64,000 nucleotides of DNA, from the NCBI GenBank assembly GCA_963835455.1, contig CAWIFT010000006.1:204503-268502 (forward strand). Reading direction: 5' to 3'. The notes beneath the pieces were generated by a model. It had not been told where the DNA came from. It ran no database searches and worked only from the letters and a program-made list of their open reading frames with translations. Both the position numbers and the translations under genes were made by a program. This document shows positions 28,323 through 44,842 of this stretch, piece by piece. This DNA comes from an uncultured Actinomycetes bacterium. Lineage in GTDB: Bacteria > Actinomycetota > Acidimicrobiia > IMCC26256 > PALSA-610. Within the stretch, counting starts at the first letter, position 1. Each line of letters starts with the position of its first letter.

Positions 28323-28395
28323 GCCGGGTTAGCTCAGTCGGTAGAGCAGCTGATTTGTAATCAGCAGGTCGTCGGTTCGATCCCGACACCCGGCT
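28323..28395 (+). tRNA. tRNA-Thr (anticodon UGU)
   Basis: Acceptor stem GCCGGGT/ACCCGGC, D-arm AGCTCAGTCGGTAGAGC. Anticodon stem GCTGA/TCAGC with loop TTTGTAA. T-arm GGTTCGATCCC. 73 nt, with no encoded CCA. Confidence 0.9.
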
Positions 28396-31245: not shown

Positions 31246-32040
31246 GTGGTCGATGCCGACGCAACGGTTGCCGCGCTGGGCGCGCACCCCGACCGCACCG
31301 CACTGTTGGTCGACTTCGACGGATCGCTCTCGCCGATCGTCGAGCGCCCGGAGGACGCGCGCCCGTTGCCGAACACGTTGGCGGTGCTCGAACGGCTCGC
31401 CGCCGGGCTCGGGCGCGTCGCGATCGTCAGCGGACGTCCTGTCGGCTTTCTGGCCCGCCACCTCCCGGTCGACGGGCTCGCGCTCGTCGGCCTCTACGGG
31501 ATGGAGCAGTTGATCGACGGCGCGTACTCGGTGGATCCGCGCGTCGAGCCGTATCTCGTCGCCGTGGCCGCGGCGACGGCCGAACTCGAAGCTCAGTTGC
31601 CCCGGGACGTGATCGAACCGAAGTCGGGAATCAGCGTCACGCTGCACTGGCGGCCCGTTCCCGACCAGGCCGAGCACATCGTGGAGGTCGCGCACGCGGT
31701 CGGCGCCAAGCACGGGCTCGGCGAGTTGCGCACCCGCATGGCGGTCGAGCTCCGCCCCCCGATCGACATCGACAAGTCGTTCGCCACGCGCGGTCTCATC
31801 GAGGGTTTCGACGTCGCCGCGTTCGCGGGCGACGACTACGGCGACCTCCCCGCGTTCGCGGAGTTGGGACGCGCGACCGAAGACGGCCGGCTGCGCACCG
31901 CGGTCCGGATCGGCGTGTTGTCGAGCGAGGCCCCGCCCGAGCTGACCGGCGCGGTCGACGTGGTCGTGAACGGTCCCGACGAATTGCTCGCGCTACTGAC
32001 CCGCCTCGCGGAGCAGATCGGCAAGCCAGTCGGCGGGTGA
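31246..32040 (+). CDS. otsB: trehalose-6-phosphate phosphatase (HAD-IIB)
   Basis: Contains LLVDFDGSLSPIV, IVSGRP and a late GDDYGD motif. 264 aa. Confidence 0.75.
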   Translation: MVDADATVAALGAHPDRTALLVDFDGSLSPIVERPEDARPLPNTLAVLERLAAGLGRVAIVSGRPVGFLARHLPVDGLALVGLYGMEQLIDGAYSVDPRVEPYLVAVAAATAELEAQLPRDVIEPKSGISVTLHWRPVPDQAEHIVEVAHAVGAKHGLGELRTRMAVELRPPIDIDKSFATRGLIEGFDVAAFAGDDYGDLPAFAELGRATEDGRLRTAVRIGVLSSEAPPELTGAVDVVVNGPDELLALLTRLAEQIGKPVGG

Positions 32041-33363
32041 GCGCTGAATCGCCAGCGCGCGCAGCTTCGCGGCCCGGGCGGCCCGTTCGTCGAGCGGCAT
32101 CGAGAGCGCATCGTCGAGCACACCCGCGCACTGTTCGAGGTCGTACGGGTGCACCGCGAGTGCCGCGGGCTTCAACTCGTCGAACGCGCCCGTCTCGGGG
32201 GAGAGGCACAACACGCCGTCGCGCCGATTGATGGCCGGGCCTTCCTTGGCGACGAGGTTGAGCCCGTCGCGTATCGAGTTGACGAGCAACACGTCGTAGC
32301 GCTCCATCCCCGCGACCGAGCGGGCGAAGTCGTCGCGGTCGTCGAGCAGGATCGGTACCCAATCGCGCGTCGCCCAGCGGTCGTTGACACGCGCCACGAC
32401 CTGTTCGACCTCGTTCTCGTAGGCCAGGTAGTCGGCCAGGCCCTGCCGGGACGGGTACACCATCGCGACGAACACGACCCGACCGCGCAGTCCCGGGCGG
32501 GCTTCGAGGAGCCGGTCGAAGGCGAGGAAGCCGCGGATGATGTTCTTGGAAGGATCGACGCGATCGGTCCGCACGACCACGAGGCGATCGCCGACCACGT
32601 CGGCCAGATAGCTCGCGGCGGCGCGCGCGTCCGGTGAGGCCGCGGTTTCCTCGAGCGCGGCGACGTCGGGTCCGAGGCTCGCGGCGAAGGGTGCCGTGAT
32701 GGTGGCGTGTCCGCCGAGCGCGGCGCGGGCCGAGAGCCGGTAGGACTCGCCCCAGCGCTTGGTGTGGAAGCCGGCCGGGCCCGACGCGAGCGCCGCGCAC
32801 AGATCGGCGCCGATGTCGGTGGGGAGCATCGAGAAGTCGTCGGGGCCGGCGAACGGCGTGTGGGTGAAGTGCACGACCCGCAGGTCGGGCCGCTGCGCGC
32901 GCAGCTGCCCCGCGACGAGGGTCAGCTGGAAATCCTGCACGAGGACGATGTCGTTCGCCGCGGCCGTCTCCACGACCGCGTCGGTGAAGCACTGGTTCAC
33001 CGCGACGAACGCGTTCCACGCGTCGCGGAACCGGAGATCGAACCGCGGCCGGCGGGCGTGGTCGAACATCCCGTGGTGCAGGAACCACAACACGCCGTTG
33101 GCGACGACGTCGTAGTGCATCCGGTGTTGTTCGTGATCGAGGTCGAGCAGCCGGACCTTGAGCTCGAGGCCCGCCGTGACGCCGGTGCGTTCGGCCTCGC
33201 AGTCGTCGTCCGACATTGCCGCCGCGATCCACGTCGCCTGCGGATTGTCGGTGAGCAGCGGCGACAGCGCGCTGACGATGCCGCCCGCGCCGCGGTGCGC
33301 GCCGAGATCGCCGTTCTCGTCGCGGCTGAATTGATACGGGCCCCGATGCGATACGACGATCAC
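31993..33363 (-). CDS. otsA: alpha,alpha-trehalose-phosphate synthase
   Basis: 456 aa with MIVVSHRGPY, NGVLWFLHH, VQDFQLTLV, RVDPSKNI and NSIRDGLNLVAKE. Confidence 0.88.
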   Translation of the reverse strand: MIVVSHRGPYQFSRDENGDLGAHRGAGGIVSALSPLLTDNPQATWIAAAMSDDDCEAERTGVTAGLELKVRLLDLDHEQHRMHYDVVANGVLWFLHHGMFDHARRPRFDLRFRDAWNAFVAVNQCFTDAVVETAAANDIVLVQDFQLTLVAGQLRAQRPDLRVVHFTHTPFAGPDDFSMLPTDIGADLCAALASGPAGFHTKRWGESYRLSARAALGGHATITAPFAASLGPDVAALEETAASPDARAAASYLADVVGDRLVVVRTDRVDPSKNIIRGFLAFDRLLEARPGLRGRVVFVAMVYPSRQGLADYLAYENEVEQVVARVNDRWATRDWVPILLDDRDDFARSVAGMERYDVLLVNSIRDGLNLVAKEGPAINRRDGVLCLSPETGAFDELKPAALAVHPYDLEQCAGVLDDALSMPLDERAARAAKLRALAIQRSPADWLADLLREAGQ

Positions 33364-33376
33364 CGGGATGCCGCCG

Positions 33377-34624
33377 TCATCGCAGCTCGGAGTAGATGCG
33401 CAGCCAGTCCTCGAGCTCGCGCGTCGAGAGGAACTTCTGGCGCACGATCTCGCGGCCCGCGGTGCCCATTGCGCTCGCCCGCTCCGGGTCGCGCAAGAGG
33501 TCCGCCGTCCGCTTGGCGGCCGTCTCGACGTCGTCGACGAGGAAGCCGTTCACGGCGTCTTCGATCTGCAAGGTGATGCCGCCGCAGCGCCCGCCGATGA
33601 CGGGCCGGCCCTTCCACAGGCCTTCGCTGACGGTGAGCCCGAAGCCCTCGCGTAGCGACTTCTGCAACACGACGTCGGCCGAGCGCTGGAACGCGTTGAT
33701 CTGCACGTTGCCGACCTGCTGGATGTTCGAGAGCAGGTGCACGTTCTCGTCGCCGTGGCGCGCTTCGTCGGCCAGTTCCCAATAGTGGAAGCCCTCCGGG
33801 TCGTCGGTCGCCATCGAACCCGCGAGCACGAGTTGGACGTTCGGGAACTCCTCGCGCACGATCCGGTACGCCTCGATCACGCCGATCGGGTCTTTCCACG
33901 GATCGAACCGGCTCACCTGGACGAGCAGCGGATCGTTCGGCCGCACGCCGTACTGCTTCACGATCTCCGTCATGAACGGGTCGGGAAGATCGAGGTTCTT
34001 CACCGAGAGCGGGTCGATGCAGGGCGGCGCAATGATGGTGCGGTCCTTCGGCATCGAGTCCGGGATGAACTGCGGCATCGTCCACACCGACGCGTCGTAC
34101 TGCTCGACGAACGGACGAAAGAACTCGAACACCTGCGGGTTCGCATCGGTGAGATCGATGTGACAACGCCAGATCCACTTCGTGCTCTCCGGCGCGACAC
34201 CGTGACCGCGCGCGTAGTCGCGCATCGCGGCCGGCTGCGGGTCGTGGATGACGACGAAGTCCCACTCGCCCTCGAGTTGCAACGCGTTGTCGAGCACACG
34301 TTCGAGGTAGATGTGCTCCATCTGTGGTGTCCACTCCACGTCGGCGCCCTGCAGCGCGTTGTGCACCGTCTTGGTCACCGCGAAGAACTCGTCGCTGCCG
34401 TGGATGACGTGCCATTCCGCGTCTATTCCCACGTCTCGCAGCAAGGCAACGTGGGTTGCGAGAAGCTCCGCGACGCCGCCGCCGTACGCGGTTGCGTTCA
34501 GGTGGAGCACCCGGGCGCCGCGCAACGGCTCGGCGAGAGCCCGGATCCGTTCGATGGTCCCGGGTTCGACCACGTCGGCGTAGTCGTCGAGGTGCTTGTC
34601 GAGCAGGGGCACGCGTTCGAGCAA
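33377..34624 (-). CDS. GT4 glycosyltransferase, trehalose synthase TreT-like
   Basis: A TTG start at 34624 gives 415 aa (alternative GTG at 34612). Contains LHLNATAYGGGVAELL and EGFGLTVSEGLWKGRPVI. It lies 13 bp upstream of otsA on the same strand. The rest of ORF 33377..35539 is antisense to the glycerate kinase gene. Confidence 0.6.
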   Translation of the reverse strand: MLERVPLLDKHLDDYADVVEPGTIERIRALAEPLRGARVLHLNATAYGGGVAELLATHVALLRDVGIDAEWHVIHGSDEFFAVTKTVHNALQGADVEWTPQMEHIYLERVLDNALQLEGEWDFVVIHDPQPAAMRDYARGHGVAPESTKWIWRCHIDLTDANPQVFEFFRPFVEQYDASVWTMPQFIPDSMPKDRTIIAPPCIDPLSVKNLDLPDPFMTEIVKQYGVRPNDPLLVQVSRFDPWKDPIGVIEAYRIVREEFPNVQLVLAGSMATDDPEGFHYWELADEARHGDENVHLLSNIQQVGNVQINAFQRSADVVLQKSLREGFGLTVSEGLWKGRPVIGGRCGGITLQIEDAVNGFLVDDVETAAKRTADLLRDPERASAMGTAGREIVRQKFLSTRELEDWLRIYSELR

Positions 34625-34676
34625 CTGGGCTCCCGGGGGGCGGCGCGGAGTGCGGACAGGCGACAATCTATTCGCT

Positions 34677-35729
34677 ATGCCCTTGGCCCCCCTGACCCGC
34701 GCTGTGGTCTGTCCCGACAAGTTCCGAGGATCACTCCGGGCGGACGAGGTCGCGAGCGCGATGGCCCAGGGCGTGCGCGGCGCGGGCTTCGACGAGGTCG
34801 TCGAGATGCCCCTTGCCGACGGCGGGGAGGGAACGCTCGACACGTTGCTCGCCGCGCGCGGCGGTTCGCGGCGCACGACCCGCGTCACCGGTCCGCTCGG
34901 CGAACCCGTTGACGCGCACTGGGGCGTGTTGACCGGCGGGCTCGCGATCATCGAGATGGCACAAGCCAGCGGACTCGCGTTGGTGCACGGCCAGAACGAT
35001 CCGTTGCGCGCCAGCACGCGCGGTACCGGCGAGTTGATCGCGGCCGTGCGCGCGCAGGGCTTCAACCGCGTCGTCGTCGCGGTCGGCGGGAGTGCGACGA
35101 CCGACGGCGGGCTCGCCGCGGTCGAGGCACTCGGTTGGTCGTTGCAGGGCATGAAGGTGACCGTCGCGTGCGACGTCGAAACGTCGTTCACGGACGCCGC
35201 GAGCGTGTACGGCCCGCAGAAGGGTGCGAGCGGCGCGCAGGTGGCGCTGCTCACGCGGCGGCTGCAGACGTTGTCCGAGCAGTACCGGTCGCGGACCGGC
35301 GTCGACGTGACCCAGCTCACGGGTGCGGGCGCGGCGGGCGGGCTCGCCGGTGGCCTCGCCGCGATCGGCGCGGAGCTCGCGCCGGGCTTCGAAGTCGTCG
35401 CGGAGGCGGTCGGGCTCGAAGCCGCGTTCGAAGGCGCCGACCTCGCGATCACCGGTGAGGGCAAGCTCGACGCGTCGAGCCTCGCGGGCAAGGTCGTCGG
35501 CGGTGTGCTCGCGTGGGCGGACGAGCTCGGCGTCGCCAATGTTGCGATCGTCGCCGGCCAGGCGACCGACGACGCACGCGCGGCCCTCGCGGAGCATGCG
35601 GGGGTTCAGGTGCTCGCGCTCACCGATCGCGTGTGGCAGTCGAGCGAGACGTACACGCGCACCGCGTTGCTCGTCGAGGAAGCCGCTATCGAGGCGGCGA
35701 GAAACGCGCTCGGTACGCCGGCACCGTGA
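34677..35729 (+). CDS. glycerate kinase
   Basis: ATG at 34677 gives 350 aa. Contains PDKFRGSL, PLADGGEGT, GGSATTDGG and TGEGKLDASSLAGKVV. Confidence 0.82.
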   Translation: MPLAPLTRAVVCPDKFRGSLRADEVASAMAQGVRGAGFDEVVEMPLADGGEGTLDTLLAARGGSRRTTRVTGPLGEPVDAHWGVLTGGLAIIEMAQASGLALVHGQNDPLRASTRGTGELIAAVRAQGFNRVVVAVGGSATTDGGLAAVEALGWSLQGMKVTVACDVETSFTDAASVYGPQKGASGAQVALLTRRLQTLSEQYRSRTGVDVTQLTGAGAAGGLAGGLAAIGAELAPGFEVVAEAVGLEAAFEGADLAITGEGKLDASSLAGKVVGGVLAWADELGVANVAIVAGQATDDARAALAEHAGVQVLALTDRVWQSSETYTRTALLVEEAAIEAARNALGTPAP

Positions 35730-36540
35730 CGATCGGTTCGCGCTCGCGCACCTCGACCGGCTCCGCGACAACCGTTCCGTCCGGTGACGCGCGCAGCAAC
35801 TCGACGAGCGGCGCCATCTCCTCGGGCAGGAGTCCCGAGCGGCGCAGCGCGATCGCCATGACCGCGAGCGCCTGAGGGCCCAGCTCGTCGAGAGGTCGGT
35901 TGCGGTGCTCGCGCACGTCGAGATCCACCTGCGCGACCGCGTCGCGCCCGAACCGCTCGACGAGGTCGATGAGCAGGCCGAGCTCCACGCCCCAACCTTC
36001 GACGAACGGGACGACTTCGAGCGCGCTGCGCCGCGCCGCGTATTCACCGCCGAGCGGTTGCACGATGTCGGCCAGCTTGGGGAAGAGCAGCGAGAGCAGT
36101 GGTCGCGCGACGAGCTCGGTGACGCGACCGCCGCCCGTCGGCGCGCCCTCGAACGAGCGCGTGGAGTACGCCTTGACGAACATCGTGTCGGGCTGAGCGA
36201 GCAGCGGCGCACACAGCCGCTCGACGTACTCACCGCGGAAGTTGCGCAGGTCGGCGTCGACCCAGCAGATGATGTCGCCGTTGCACGCGTACAACGACTT
36301 CCACATCGCGTTGCCCTTCCCCGACCCGGGCCCGGTCTCGGGCAGCACCGACGCCTCGCGGACGACGCGTGCCCCGGCCGCGCGTGCGACCGCGGCAGTG
36401 TCGTCGGTGGACCCGTCGTCGAGGACCACGACCTCGGACACGAGCTCGAGGCGCACCGCTTCGGCGACGATGGCGCCGATGGTCGCCGCTTCGTCACGCG
36501 CCGGCAGGCACACGGACACGCCGGAGGCGCCTATTGCCAT
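35686..36540 (-). CDS. gpgS: glucosyl-3-phosphoglycerate synthase (GT81)
   Basis: ATG at 36540 gives 284 aa. Contains VCLPARDEAATIG, VVLDDGSTDDT, GKGNAMW, WVDADL and GGEYAARR, resembling mycobacterial GpgS. Confidence 0.75.
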   Translation of the reverse strand: MAIGASGVSVCLPARDEAATIGAIVAEAVRLELVSEVVVLDDGSTDDTAAVARAAGARVVREASVLPETGPGSGKGNAMWKSLYACNGDIICWVDADLRNFRGEYVERLCAPLLAQPDTMFVKAYSTRSFEGAPTGGGRVTELVARPLLSLLFPKLADIVQPLGGEYAARRSALEVVPFVEGWGVELGLLIDLVERFGRDAVAQVDLDVREHRNRPLDELGPQALAVMAIALRRSGLLPEEMAPLVELLRASPDGTVVAEPVEVREREPIVTVPAYRARFSPPR

Positions 36541-36581
36541 GCGGGCAGAGTACGGGAATCTGTTATTCTCCCCGTCAACGC

Positions 36582-36690
36582 GCTCATCGAGAGCGGCCGA
36601 GGGACAGGCCCTTTGACGCCGCGGCAACCAGCGAAGACCCCGGGTACTGCCCGAAGGTCCGAGCCAGGTGCCAATGCCTGACCGATGAGC
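36582..36690 (+). promoter_or_regulatory. SAM-I (S-box) riboswitch aptamer
   Basis: P1 is GCTCATCG/CGATGAGC. Conserved core strings appear in the right order: ATCGAGAG-GG-GAGGGA-GGCCC-TGA-GCC-GGCAACC...GGTGCCAA-CC...GATGAG. It ends 78 nt upstream of the ThrC-like ATG. Confidence 0.85.
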
Positions 36691-36767
36691 AGCCAAAGAG
36701 CGGCCTCCAGATAGAGGACAGCCGCTCGAGGCGCTCGGAGCGCGTCGAGACAAAGGGAGACGCTCCG

Positions 36768-38003
36768 ATGGTTCATGTACAAGGCCTCCGCTGCCGAGAG
36801 TGCGGTCGCGAGTACGACGCGGCCCCGATCTTCACGTGCGAGTGGTGCTTCGGGCCGCTCGAGGTGGCATACGACTACGACGCGATCAAGGCGTCGGTCA
36901 CGCGCGAGAAGATCGCGGCGGGGCCGCTCAGCCTGTGGCGCTACTCCGACCTGTTGCCGGTGGAAGCCGACACTGCGGTCGACCTCGGCACGGGTTTCAC
37001 GCCGCTCGTGCGCGCCGACCGGCTCGCGGCCGAGCTCGGCCTCGGTGAGGTGTGGCTGAAGAACGACACCCGCAACCCGACGAACTCGTTCAAGGATCGC
37101 GTGGTGTCGGTCGCGCTGAGCAAGGCCCTCGAGTTCGGTTTCAAGGTCGCGGCCTGCGCGTCGACCGGCAACCTCGCGAACTCCGTTGCCGCGCACGCGG
37201 CGCGGGCCGGTCTGAAGAGTTACGTGTTCATCCCCGCCGATCTCGAGCAGGGGAAGATCGTCACGACCGCGGTGTACGGCGGCAACCTCGTTGCGATCAA
37301 GGGCAACTACGACGACGTCAACCGCCTGTGCGCGGAGCTCGCGGGCATCTACGAGTGGGCGTTCGTCAACGTCAACATGCGGCCGTACTACGCGGAAGGT
37401 TCGAAGACGCTCGCGTTCGAAACCGCGGAGCAGCTCGGCTGGAGCCTTCCGGACCACGTCGTCGTACCGGTCGCGAGCGGTTCGCTGCTGACGAAGATCC
37501 GCAAGGGCTTCGACGAGCTGTACAAGGTCGGGCTGCTCGACGCCGAGCCGCAGGTGCGCGTGTCGGGCGCGCAGGCACTCGGTTGCTCGCCGGTCGCGGA
37601 GGCGTTCATCGAGAAGGCCGACACGATCAAGCCCGTGAAGCCCGCCACGATCGCCAAGTCGCTCGCCATCGGCAATCCGGCCGACGGCTACTTCGCGCTC
37701 GACGTCGTGCGATCGACCGGCGGCGGGTTCGGCGCGGTCACCGACGACGAGATCGTCGACGGGATGCGCCTGCTCGCGCGTACCGAGGGGATCTTCGCCG
37801 AGACCGCGGGCGGTGTGACGATCGCGACGTTGAAGAAGCTCGCGGCCGACGGTGTGATCCGCCCCGACGAGCGCGTCGTCGTCTACATCACGGGGCACGG
37901 TCTGAAGACGCTCGAAGCGGTTTCCGGTCAGTGCGGACCCACCGCGACGATCGCACCCACTCTCGACGCGTTCCACGAAGCGTTCGACATCGAGGAGTCG
38001 TAA
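36768..38003 (+). CDS. threonine-synthase-family PLP enzyme with N-terminal Cys4 ribbon (MetM-like candidate)
   Basis: 411 aa. N-terminal ribbon is CRECG...CEWC. The PLP-lysine region is NPTNSFKDR. Also has GNLANSVAAHAA and SGSLL. It is preceded by the SAM riboswitch. Confidence 0.8.
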   Translation: MVHVQGLRCRECGREYDAAPIFTCEWCFGPLEVAYDYDAIKASVTREKIAAGPLSLWRYSDLLPVEADTAVDLGTGFTPLVRADRLAAELGLGEVWLKNDTRNPTNSFKDRVVSVALSKALEFGFKVAACASTGNLANSVAAHAARAGLKSYVFIPADLEQGKIVTTAVYGGNLVAIKGNYDDVNRLCAELAGIYEWAFVNVNMRPYYAEGSKTLAFETAEQLGWSLPDHVVVPVASGSLLTKIRKGFDELYKVGLLDAEPQVRVSGAQALGCSPVAEAFIEKADTIKPVKPATIAKSLAIGNPADGYFALDVVRSTGGGFGAVTDDEIVDGMRLLARTEGIFAETAGGVTIATLKKLAADGVIRPDERVVVYITGHGLKTLEAVSGQCGPTATIAPTLDAFHEAFDIEES

Positions 38004-38022
38004 ACACCATGATCGGGTTGGC

Positions 38023-38298
38023 ATGAGCGTCACCGTCCGCATCCCCACGCAGCTGCGCAGCCTCTCGGCCAACGAGTCCGAGGTCCAGGTCGAGGCCGGG
38101 ACCGTGGCCGAGGCGTTGAAGGCGCTCGAGGCCGCGCATCCCGGATTCTCGGAGCGGTTGTTCGACGAGACCGGCGGGCTGCGGCGTTTCGTCAACGTCT
38201 TTCTCGCCGACGAAGACATTCGCTTCCTGCAGGGCGTCGACTCGGTGGTCACCGACGGGCAGACGATCAGCATCGTTCCGGCCGTCGCCGGCGGCTGA
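38023..38298 (+). CDS. ThiS/MoaD/CysO-type sulfur-carrier protein
   Basis: A 91-aa ORF of beta-grasp-like size ending ...ISIVPAVAGG-stop. It starts 19 nt after the ThrC-like gene. Confidence 0.75.
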   Translation: MSVTVRIPTQLRSLSANESEVQVEAGTVAEALKALEAAHPGFSERLFDETGGLRRFVNVFLADEDIRFLQGVDSVVTDGQTISIVPAVAGG

Positions 38299-38812
38299 GT
38301 GGGCGGTTGCCCGACGCTCGAAACGGAACGGCTGATACTGCGGCCGTTCCGTGAGGACGACACGGACGCGTACGCCGCGTTGTTGCAAACCCCGCAAGTC
38401 CGCGCGGCGTTGCACCTGCCCGACGACATCGGTCGCTACGACGCGTGGCTCGGGTTGGCGAAGTGGCTCGGCCAGTGGGAGTTGCGCGACACCGGGCAGT
38501 GGGCGCTCGAGGAGAAGGCGTCGGGCGCGTTCGTCGGGACGCGCGGGTTCGCATTTTCCCGCGCGAGGACTGGCCCGGTATCGAGATCGGCTGGGCACTG
38601 CACCCCGACCACTGGGGCAAGGGTTACGCAACCGAAGCCGGCGCGACCGCAATCGAATACGTGTTCGCGCATCACGACGTCGACGCGGTCTACAGCGTGA
38701 TCCTGCCGGAGAACACCGCGTCGCAGGCGGTCGCCAAACGACTCGGCTTCACGTTGTACGAGACGCGCGCGCTTTCACACTTCCCGTCCATGGAGCACGG
38801 GATCTGGAAGCT

Positions 38813-38831
<19 letters not shown>
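38299..38831 (+). pseudogene. GNAT (RimJ/RimL-type) N-acetyltransferase, frame-disrupted near 38557
   Basis: ORF 38299..38700 carries LETERLILRPFREDD...WALEEKASGAFVGT. ORF 38445..38831 carries FPREDWPGIEIGWALHPDHWGKGYATEA. The junction falls at GCATTTTCCC. Confidence 0.75.
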
Positions 38832-41274
<2,443 letters not shown>

Positions 41275-43796: not shown

Positions 43797-44591
43797 GTGC
43801 AACAGGTGATTCCGTCGGTCGGTTGGGGTGTTCTCCACCTCTACTACCGCGTCGACCGAGAGCGCGCCGAGCGCGACGCGAGCGCGGGGAAGCACGTGCG
43901 CGACGCGGTCGCGGCCCTCGAAGCCGACGGGCACCAGGCGTTGGTGCTGGCGATGCTCGGGCACAAGGCCGACCTCGGAGTGATCGCGCTCGGCCCCGAT
44001 CTCGCGCGGCTGCAGCGCTTCCAGAACGAACTGCTCGCGGCGCCGCTCGAGCCCGTGTACTCGTACGTTTCGCTCACCGAGCAGTCGGAATACGGCGCGA
44101 CCGAGGACGACGAGCGCGCGCGTCTCGCGCGTGAGGAGGGCGTCACAGGTGAAGAGCTCGAGGCCCGGCTTGCCGTGTGGCGCGACCGGATCGAGCACTA
44201 TCGCGAGAACCGCGTGCACCCGAATCTTCCGGCCAAGAAGAGCTGCTGCTTCTACCCCATGTCGAAGCGGCGCGCGACCGACGCGAACTGGTACGAGCTC
44301 CCGTTCGACGAGCGCAAGGATCTGATGGCCGGCCACGCACGCGTCGGCCGCACGTACGCGGGTCGCGTGTTGCAACTCATCACCGGCTCGACGGGCATCG
44401 ACGACTGGGAGTGGGGCGTCACGCTCTTGGCCGACGACCCGGCCGCGCTCAAGGAGATCGTGTACGAGATGCGCTTCGATCCGGTCTCGGCCCGCTACGC
44501 GGAGTTCGGTCCGTTCTTCACGGGCCTCGTGCTCGATCCGGCCGACGCGTGTGCTCGCGTCGGCTTGCGCAGCGGAGACGACGCTCGATGA
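43797..44591 (+). CDS. hemQ: chlorite-dismutase-family coproheme decarboxylase (HemQ/ChdC)
   Basis: 264 aa with CCFYPMSKRR, NWYELPFDERKDLMAGH, DDWEWGVTLLADD and EMRFDPVSARYAEFGPF. Confidence 0.8.
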   Translation: MQQVIPSVGWGVLHLYYRVDRERAERDASAGKHVRDAVAALEADGHQALVLAMLGHKADLGVIALGPDLARLQRFQNELLAAPLEPVYSYVSLTEQSEYGATEDDERARLAREEGVTGEELEARLAVWRDRIEHYRENRVHPNLPAKKSCCFYPMSKRRATDANWYELPFDERKDLMAGHARVGRTYAGRVLQLITGSTGIDDWEWGVTLLADDPAALKEIVYEMRFDPVSARYAEFGPFFTGLVLDPADACARVGLRSGDDAR

Positions 44592-44842
44592 CGCAGCGCA
44601 CGGACGCGATCCGGCTCTTCGTGTCGATCCCGGAAGCGCTCGTCGAGCGCCCGATCATCTACGAGATGATCAAACAGTTCGACGTCGTGCCGAGCATCCG
44701 GCGCGCGAACGTGGAAGCGCACTCCGCGTGGGTGATCCTCGAGCTCTCCGGTTCGGCGCAGGCGCGCGACGCGGCGGTCGCGTTTCTCCTCGGTCTCGGC
44801 TGCACGGTCAACAACATGGAAGGCGACGTCGTCGCCGGTTGA
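44588..44842 (+). CDS. stand-alone NIL-domain protein
   Basis: ATG at 44588 overlaps the hemQ stop (ATGA). The 84-aa sequence IRLFVSIPEALVERPIIYEMIKQFDVVPSIRRANVE...VILELSG...AVAFL resembles the MetN C-terminal NIL domain. Confidence 0.5.
   Translation: MTQRTDAIRLFVSIPEALVERPIIYEMIKQFDVVPSIRRANVEAHSAWVILELSGSAQARDAAVAFLLGLGCTVNNMEGDVVAG

Follow-up and report, generated by a model that had tools for sequence, protein, structure and literature searches.

We analyzed a 64,000-nt stretch of DNA (hereafter the window; positions 204,503 to 268,502 of contig CAWIFT010000006.1, assembly GCA_963835455.1) from an uncultured bacterium of the Acidimicrobiia, in which an S-adenosylmethionine (SAM) riboswitch, a gene of the threonine synthase family, and a gene encoding a small sulfur carrier follow each other on the plus strand. 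The riboswitch is a SAM-I (S-box) aptamer without P4 (positions 36581 to 36691). It matched the Rfam model RF00162 over its full span (model positions 1 to 108) with 67.3 bits (E = 1.6e−13), above the gathering score of 44.4 bits. This agrees with the original prediction, made from the sequence alone, of an S-box aptamer at 36582 to 36690, although the gap to the start codon is 76 to 77 nt and not the 78 nt given there. The first gene (36768 to 38003, with the ATG at 36768 and the TAA at 38001 to 38003) encodes a protein of 411 amino acids. The second (38023 to 38298), whose ATG lies 19 nt 3′ of the enzyme stop codon, encodes a ThiS/MoaD/CysO-like protein of 91 amino acids ending in PAVAGG. 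Comparison of these sequences with their relatives indicates that the region is very probably a riboswitch-controlled metM-metO operon, i.e., the copy of the MetM/MetO system carried by a member of the Acidimicrobiia.

This system is known from Streptomyces albulus. According to PMC12172450, which cites Hasebe et al. (2024, Appl Environ Microbiol 90:e01247-24), MetM of this species is a homocysteine synthase and MetO is its sulfur carrier; the pair converts O-phosphohomoserine to homocysteine, and a SAM riboswitch lies upstream of metM. A thiocarboxylate route from O-phosphohomoserine to homocysteine is also included in the GapMind 2026 preprint, with MetO, Mec, MoeZ, and MetM as its steps. 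The original prediction had named such a pair from Streptomyces, in agreement with both sources.

The enzyme is distinct from the solved threonine synthases

The 411-residue protein had been predicted to belong to the threonine synthase family and to carry a Cys4 ribbon and the pyridoxal phosphate (PLP) region NPTNSFKDR, and these features were all recovered. The ribbon spans residues 8 to 26 at the N terminus and contains CRECGREYDAAPIFTCEWC, while K109, within NPTNSFKDR, is the lysine forming the Schiff base with PLP. The protein matched the Pfam family PALP (244 bits) and the threonine synthase models NF006050 of NCBIfam (311.5 bits, for a cut-off of 303) and TIGR00260 (293 bits). It is 58 to 62% identical to its counterparts in more than 10 species of Streptomyces and Kitasatospora, and 38 to 41% identical to the solved class II threonine synthases of Aquifex, Thermus, Mycobacterium tuberculosis, and Bacillus subtilis (PDB 2zsj, 1uim, 2d1f, and 6cgq). 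A published figure of 33% identity between B. subtilis ThrC and MetM is in line with the distances measured here. The canonical enzymes share with the window protein the fold, the PLP-lysine motif and, presumably, O-phosphohomoserine as the substrate. They differ from it in lacking the N-terminal ribbon, since all of them align only from residue 55 of the window protein onward, whereas among the sequences sampled from the riboswitch-linked clade only that of locus L049 was without it.

A bootstrapped neighbor-joining tree of the catalytic core placed the solved threonine synthases in a clade of their own (bootstrap of 84), outside which the window protein grouped with riboswitch-linked sequences of actinomycetes and metagenomes. 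Twenty-five alignment positions were fixed differently in 20 riboswitch-linked sequences and in the solved threonine synthases. Examples are FKDRVV in the clade versus FKDRGM in canonical ThrC, NxRPYY versus NPxR, and T346 versus a proline. The identity levels, the position in the tree, the signature residues, and the chromosomal slot described below together establish the window enzyme as an ortholog of the Streptomyces genes.

The family assignment also fits a genuine threonine synthase, placed under the control of SAM to balance O-phosphohomoserine between threonine and methionine and followed by an unrelated carrier gene. The enzyme scores above the curated thresholds of two threonine synthase models of NCBIfam, and its substrate-binding fold is shared with solved enzymes of this type (E = 1.5e−62 with 2zsj). 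The window contains no other thrC, and near-identical public proteins (87 to 100% identity), which come from metagenome-assembled genomes of Acidimicrobiia and other Actinomycetota, are called threonine synthase wherever they are named. We nevertheless regard this explanation as most improbable. The enzyme clusters apart from the solved threonine synthases, with its 25 clade-specific positions, and the carrier gene 19 nt downstream stays linked to it even where protein identity falls to about 60%. In plants, SAM activates threonine synthase, and repression at high SAM would oppose this logic. Moreover, the Streptomyces orthologs are of the characterized MetM type, and according to the GapMind 2026 preprint, MetM frequently bears a wrong threonine synthase annotation.

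The downstream gene encodes a sulfur carrier with a free GG terminus

The 91-residue product, predicted to be of beta-grasp-like size and to end in AVAGG, matched the Pfam family ThiS (PF02597) with 47.5 bits (cut-off of 22.5). It aligned over its full length with the Amycolatopsis carrier of structure 4n6e (4n6e_B, E = 1.4e−19) and with CysO of M. tuberculosis (3dwg_C, E = 5.9e−19), and it fell just under the cut-offs of the SAMP1 and archaeal MoaD models (TIGR01687, 41.4 bits for a cut-off of 49.5). It thus lies closest to CysO-type carriers and not to MoaD, and no moaE is found in the window. Its identity to the carriers of Streptomyces and Kitasatospora is about 50%. Since it is equally close to CysO, to the carrier in 4n6e, and to the MetO-type proteins of Streptomyces, its assignment to MetO relies on where its gene lies in the operon and not on its sequence alone.

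The C terminus is strongly conserved among 108 carrier homologs (four more hits, cut off by contig ends, were left outside this number). The sequence PA(V/I)AGG closes 96 of them exactly. Six end in GGC (L133, L145, L146, L147, L154, and L160, from Streptomyces, Kitasatospora, and Marmoricola), four have other short tails after the GG (L010, L018, L019, and L050), and two have aberrant ends without a terminal GG (L002 and L144). The tails after GG, whether GGC or other, imply a trimming step, which the GG-ended carrier of the window would not need. A Mec-type hydrolase encoded elsewhere may still be required for the release of the product, by analogy with the CysO/Mec and HcyS/HcyD systems, in which the protease also splits the carrier adduct to free the amino acid. 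The earlier statement that no JAMM protease is needed therefore stands for the C-terminal trimming, which the GG end spares, and may fail for product release. The inclusion of Mec among the steps of GapMind, for maturation, is accounted for by the GGC tails found in part of the Streptomyces, Kitasatospora, and Marmoricola copies.

The closeness to CysO raises the question of whether the pair makes another sulfur compound, such as cysteine from O-phosphoserine in the manner of CysM/CysO, cysteate, a thio-cofactor, or an intermediate of a natural product. The M. tuberculosis CysM/CysO/Mec/MoeZ system resembles the proposed one in using a phosphorylated hydroxy-amino acid, a PLP enzyme of fold type II, and a carrier with a GG-thiocarboxylate, and the threonine synthase family includes cysteate synthase, whose model matched the window enzyme from residue 7. 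However, this match reached 75.9 bits for a cut-off of 324.9, and the CysK/CysM model (TIGR01136) gave 47 bits for a cut-off of 344, placing the enzyme in the ThrC family and not with CysK/CysM. The substrate proposed for the window pair has four carbons, whereas CysM/CysO makes cysteine from O-phosphoserine, and regulation is by SAM: the aptamer senses this compound and its link to the enzyme gene was kept in 66 of the 73 loci tested. The gene neighborhood is of the housekeeping kind and not that of a biosynthetic gene cluster. A product other than homocysteine thus appears very unlikely.

The arrangement is conserved across actinomycetes

We searched for related loci in metagenomes, where 80 were found with proteins 59 to 94% identical to the window enzyme, and in genomes, where a representative from the Micromonosporaceae used as a seed gave 80 loci in named actinomycetes (loci of both scans are designated by L numbers). 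RF00162 was found just upstream of the enzyme gene in 55 of the 62 metagenome loci whose sequence extends 250 nt or more upstream. It was also found directly upstream in all 11 named genomes tested (five Streptomyces and one each of Kitasatospora, Micromonospora, Asanoa, Blastococcus, Streptosporangium, and Nocardioides). A carrier homolog was present downstream in about 65 of the 80 metagenome loci and immediately downstream in 43 of the 80 genome loci, including every locus of Streptomyces and Kitasatospora. The recurrence in dozens of independent loci indicates that the arrangement is not due to chance.

The surrounding genes are also conserved. The order otsA, divergent GT2 glycosyltransferase, riboswitch, enzyme, carrier, and groEL is common to the window (31246 to 36541 on the upstream side and 39604 to 41274), to the metagenome locus L001, and to Streptomyces filamentosus (L160, 3150 to 10199), which has a cold-shock gene between the carrier gene and groEL. 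L001, on a contig of 1.86 Mb, encodes an enzyme 94% identical to that of the window and matches the window in its gene order, which runs otsB, otsA, a TreT-type glycosyltransferase, glycerate kinase, the divergent GT2, the enzyme, the carrier, a GNAT acetyltransferase, an IdeR/DtxR-type repressor, and groEL. Other Streptomyces species show the same neighborhood, beside groEL2. The chromosomal slot is therefore conserved from Acidimicrobiia to Streptomyces.

The genes for carrier activation are not part of this neighborhood. Pfam scans of approximately 55 open reading frames (ORFs) in the window revealed no ThiF/MoeZ, rhodanese, JAMM, or MoaE domain, and no second gene of the threonine synthase family, MetX/MetY-type enzyme, or other PLP enzyme of the methionine pathway; neither hom nor thrB flanks the enzyme gene in the window. 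When 844 neighboring ORFs of the related loci were clustered and the cluster representatives scanned with Pfam, no E1, JAMM, or rhodanese was found near the operon. This fits the earlier suggestion, based on the lack of an E1 or rhodanese in the window, that carrier activation is encoded elsewhere.

In 37 of the 80 actinomycete genome loci, the riboswitch and the enzyme gene occur with no carrier gene within 6 kb (L082 to L112, L114, L119, L124, L130, L134, and L143, from Micromonosporaceae, Geodermatophilaceae, Jatrophihabitans, and others). Because of these loci, the carrier may be non-obligatory or shared. They could also mean that MetM uses free sulfide directly, like the MetY-type sulfhydrylases, the carrier being dispensable or serving mainly another pathway, and the lack of an activating E1 linked to the operon in the lineages surveyed points the same way. 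Against this, a single MoeZ normally serves more than one carrier in actinomycetes. The tight spacing of 19 nt, the adjacency of the carrier gene in most loci, and its strictly conserved PA(V/I)AGG end also argue against a dispensable carrier, and the enzyme depends on the MetO thiocarboxylate according to the GapMind 2026 preprint. We therefore give the direct use of sulfide little credence.

A probable thiocarboxylate route to homocysteine

The chemistry that we propose for the window pair is taken from the literature and would apply to it by analogy. MetM would be a PLP enzyme of fold type II and of threonine synthase descent that takes O-phospho-l-homoserine, the usual substrate of threonine synthase, and eliminates its phosphate. 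Rather than adding water, it would then take up sulfur from the thiocarboxylate at the C terminus of MetO (AVAGG-COSH). The homocysteine so formed, whether free at once or initially bound to MetO as an adduct, would be further converted to methionine and SAM. MetO would be adenylated and sulfurated by an E1 of the MoeZ/ThiF type encoded elsewhere in the genome. We infer the involvement of MoeZ, and possibly that of Mec. In S. albulus as in the window, a SAM riboswitch precedes the gene for a threonine synthase homolog, after which comes that for a ThiS/MoaD-type carrier; the window pair differs in its host, which is a metagenome-assembled genome of the Acidimicrobiia. It also differs from some Streptomyces and Kitasatospora copies in that their carriers end in GGC and would need trimming by Mec.

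A carrier thiocarboxylate also provides the sulfur of homocysteine in the HcyS/HcyD/HcyF/MetY system of Wolinella succinogenes. There, MetY is an enzyme of fold type I acting on O-acetylhomoserine, and the carrier is trimmed by a JAMM protease. The genes for the E1 and the protease are clustered with that of the carrier in W. succinogenes, whereas none are linked to it in the window or the related loci.

The proposal of a SAM-controlled homocysteine route of the MetM/MetO type is supported by orthology, as seen in sequence, ribbon, and neighborhood, and by the published S. albulus assignment. Several observations weigh against it. In addition to the scores above the cut-offs of two threonine synthase models and the 37 loci with no nearby carrier gene, the support inside the MetM-like clade is weak, with a bootstrap of 25 at the node joining the window protein to Streptomyces. 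The demonstrated orthology links the window protein with other Streptomyces species and not directly with the characterized S. albulus protein. Finally, a thermodynamic model of the switch, detailed below, was not supported.

The aptamer is a P4-less SAM-I variant

The P1 stem of the window aptamer is formed by positions 36582 to 36589 paired with 36683 to 36690. The RF00162 alignment showed that P4 is missing, with 17 model positions deleted, and that P3 carries an insert of 30 nt. The deletion of P4 leaves a three-way junction instead of the four-way junction of P1 to P4. The rest of the architecture, i.e., the core, the k-turn stem P2, the pseudoknot partner, and P1, is kept. The same P4-less form was found in all the close relatives that were aligned (the aptamers of L003 to L029), whereas the Streptomyces aptamers preceding the orthologous gene keep P4. 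Over 40 aptamers, 36 columns were invariant, including AGA in J1/2, the GAGGGA of the k-turn, GGCAACC, and GGUGCCAA. Natural SAM-I aptamers without P4 have been documented in a group of Actinomycetota and can function (PMC12714719). The window aptamer is therefore a known variant that is not excluded from the SAM-I class, and its leader is another example of this form with no notable difference.

We also considered whether H1, a hairpin downstream of the aptamer (see below), could be a relocated P4 as in SAM-IV-like riboswitches. This was dropped since the variable P3 loops hold no conserved complement to it. The SAM-IV-like reading is also contradicted by the internal loop of P2, which the window aptamer keeps and SAM-I/IV variants lack, and it is not needed given that the P4-less SAM-I aptamer is a documented natural form.

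By sequence inspection, and with low confidence, the hexamer TATTCT (36564 to 36569, plus strand) may be the −10 element of the leader transcript. It falls within the 39 nt that separate the start codon of the divergent GT2 gene (36541 to 36539, minus strand) from the aptamer. A scan for the sigma-70 consensus did not report this hexamer.

The leader downstream of the aptamer contains conserved hairpins

The segment between the aptamer and the start codon is highly structured. Hairpin H1 (36698 to 36727), which was part of the original prediction, pairs GAGCGGC (36698 to 36704) with GCCGCUC (36721 to 36727) and has in its loop a CCUCC (36704 to 36708), a possible anti-Shine-Dalgarno sequence. 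Its helix is kept in the relatives, one of which has the compensatory pair GAACG/CGUUC, while the loops vary from 4 to about 25 nt. Hairpin H2 (36725 to 36749; CUCGAGGCGCUCGGAGCGCGUCGAG) is a nearly invariant element of 25 nt whose base overlaps the 3′ arm of H1. In 12 leaders, its sequence CUCGAGGCGCUCG(A)GAGCGCGUCGAG was almost unchanged, while the flanks and the adjoining hairpins varied. RNAalifold gave for these leaders a consensus of 11 pairs, most of which never vary and one of which is compensatory.

The structure 3′ of H2 differs between relatives. In the window, minimum-free-energy folds contain an alternative hairpin (36736 to 36767), where CGGAGCG (36736 to 36742) pairs with CGCUCCG (36761 to 36767). 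This extends the previously noted pairing of GGAGCG (36737 to 36742) with CGCTCC (36761 to 36766). The hairpin masks the stretch from −7 to −1 immediately ahead of the start codon and holds in its loop the Shine-Dalgarno sequence GGGAG (36755 to 36759), 8 nt before the ATG; at the corresponding position, the relatives have GGAGG or GGGAG. This hairpin is confined to the window and its closest relatives, with L003, L004, and L021 sharing it. The motif GAGAGCG and the complement CGCUC recur several times along the leader.

We infer from the known behavior of SAM-I leaders on methionine genes that SAM represses metM-metO: plentiful SAM would bind the P4-less aptamer, and expression would be lowered. 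A search for intrinsic terminators (a hairpin plus a U-tract) between 36300 and 38500 found none, in agreement with the earlier remark that H1 lacks a U-tract. Since there is no such terminator and the ribosome-binding site lies within a conserved stable structure, control would act at translation initiation, via Rho, or through both. Pairing of CCUCC with the Shine-Dalgarno sequence could provide the translational off state.

A thermodynamic switch was modeled with ViennaRNA in 18 leaders by forcing P1 or by blocking its 5′ strand. The accessibility of the Shine-Dalgarno sequence did not change consistently, its unpaired fraction being 0.23 to 0.60 in both states, and the model was thus not supported. 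In several folds, the P1-proximal linker paired with codons 6 to 11, which may only reflect the conservation of the coding sequence. Only in the leader of L022 (around 1835 to 1870) did closure of the aptamer and folding of the platform visibly exclude each other. There, the GAGCGG arm of H1 overlaps a duplicated 3′ strand of P1 (GAUGAGCGG), which is a classic way of coupling an aptamer to its platform.

A NIL-domain gene recurs next to metM and metO

Genes encoding NIL domains adjoin metM/metO in 32 loci: in 7 of the 80 metagenome loci they separate metM from metO, and in 25 more they follow metO at a distance of at most 150 nt (examples are L040, 5261 to 5500, and L046, 1922 to 2203). The window has a stand-alone NIL-domain ORF of 84 amino acids (44588 to 44842, plus strand; Pfam PF09383, 40.6 bits), a candidate accessory protein outside the operon. 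It lies 6.3 kb downstream, its start overlapping the stop codon of a gene of the chlorite dismutase family, and is 37% identical (E = 7e−20) to the ORF found between metM and metO in L040. The unrelated DUF39 pathway of homocysteine synthesis depends on NIL/ferredoxin proteins (PMC5764234), which suggests that the link to metM/metO may be functional. We tentatively consider that the NIL protein could be an undescribed third component of the MetM/MetO system, e.g., a partner in sulfur relay or in the binding of methionine or homocysteine, although this seems less probable than its absence from the system.

Consequences for annotation

MetM/MetO was published in 2024 and is already included in GapMind, so the discovery value of the window locus is limited, and it is a useful re-annotation of a known kind of system rather than a discovery. 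Since the copies are named threonine synthase, metabolic reconstructions of Acidimicrobiia and of many other lineages would miss this route to homocysteine or wrongly predict methionine auxotrophy. Three features taken together can serve as a rule for re-annotation: a SAM-I aptamer upstream, a carrier ending in PA(V/I)AGG downstream, and the residues FKDRVV and NxRPYY in the enzyme. The recurrent NIL-domain gene and the nearly invariant hairpin H2 are the only parts that may lead to something new.

Other features of the window

A gene encoding a GNAT acetyltransferase (38299 to 38831, plus strand; match to Pfam Acetyltransf_3) begins at the base directly after the metO stop codon and, given this contact, is probably cotranscribed with metO. 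Such a gene is also found 3′ of metO in five close relatives, a place occupied in Streptomyces by the cold-shock gene. A frameshift near 38550 to 38562 splits the window copy, as revealed by a tblastn search with the intact homolog of L001 (175 amino acids), which aligned in two frames. The split gene is either a pseudogene or the product of an assembly error. The sole other Rfam match in the window was a tRNA gene (28323 to 28395, plus strand; 72.9 bits), unrelated to the operon, which follows cysS and a gene resembling an rRNA methyltransferase.

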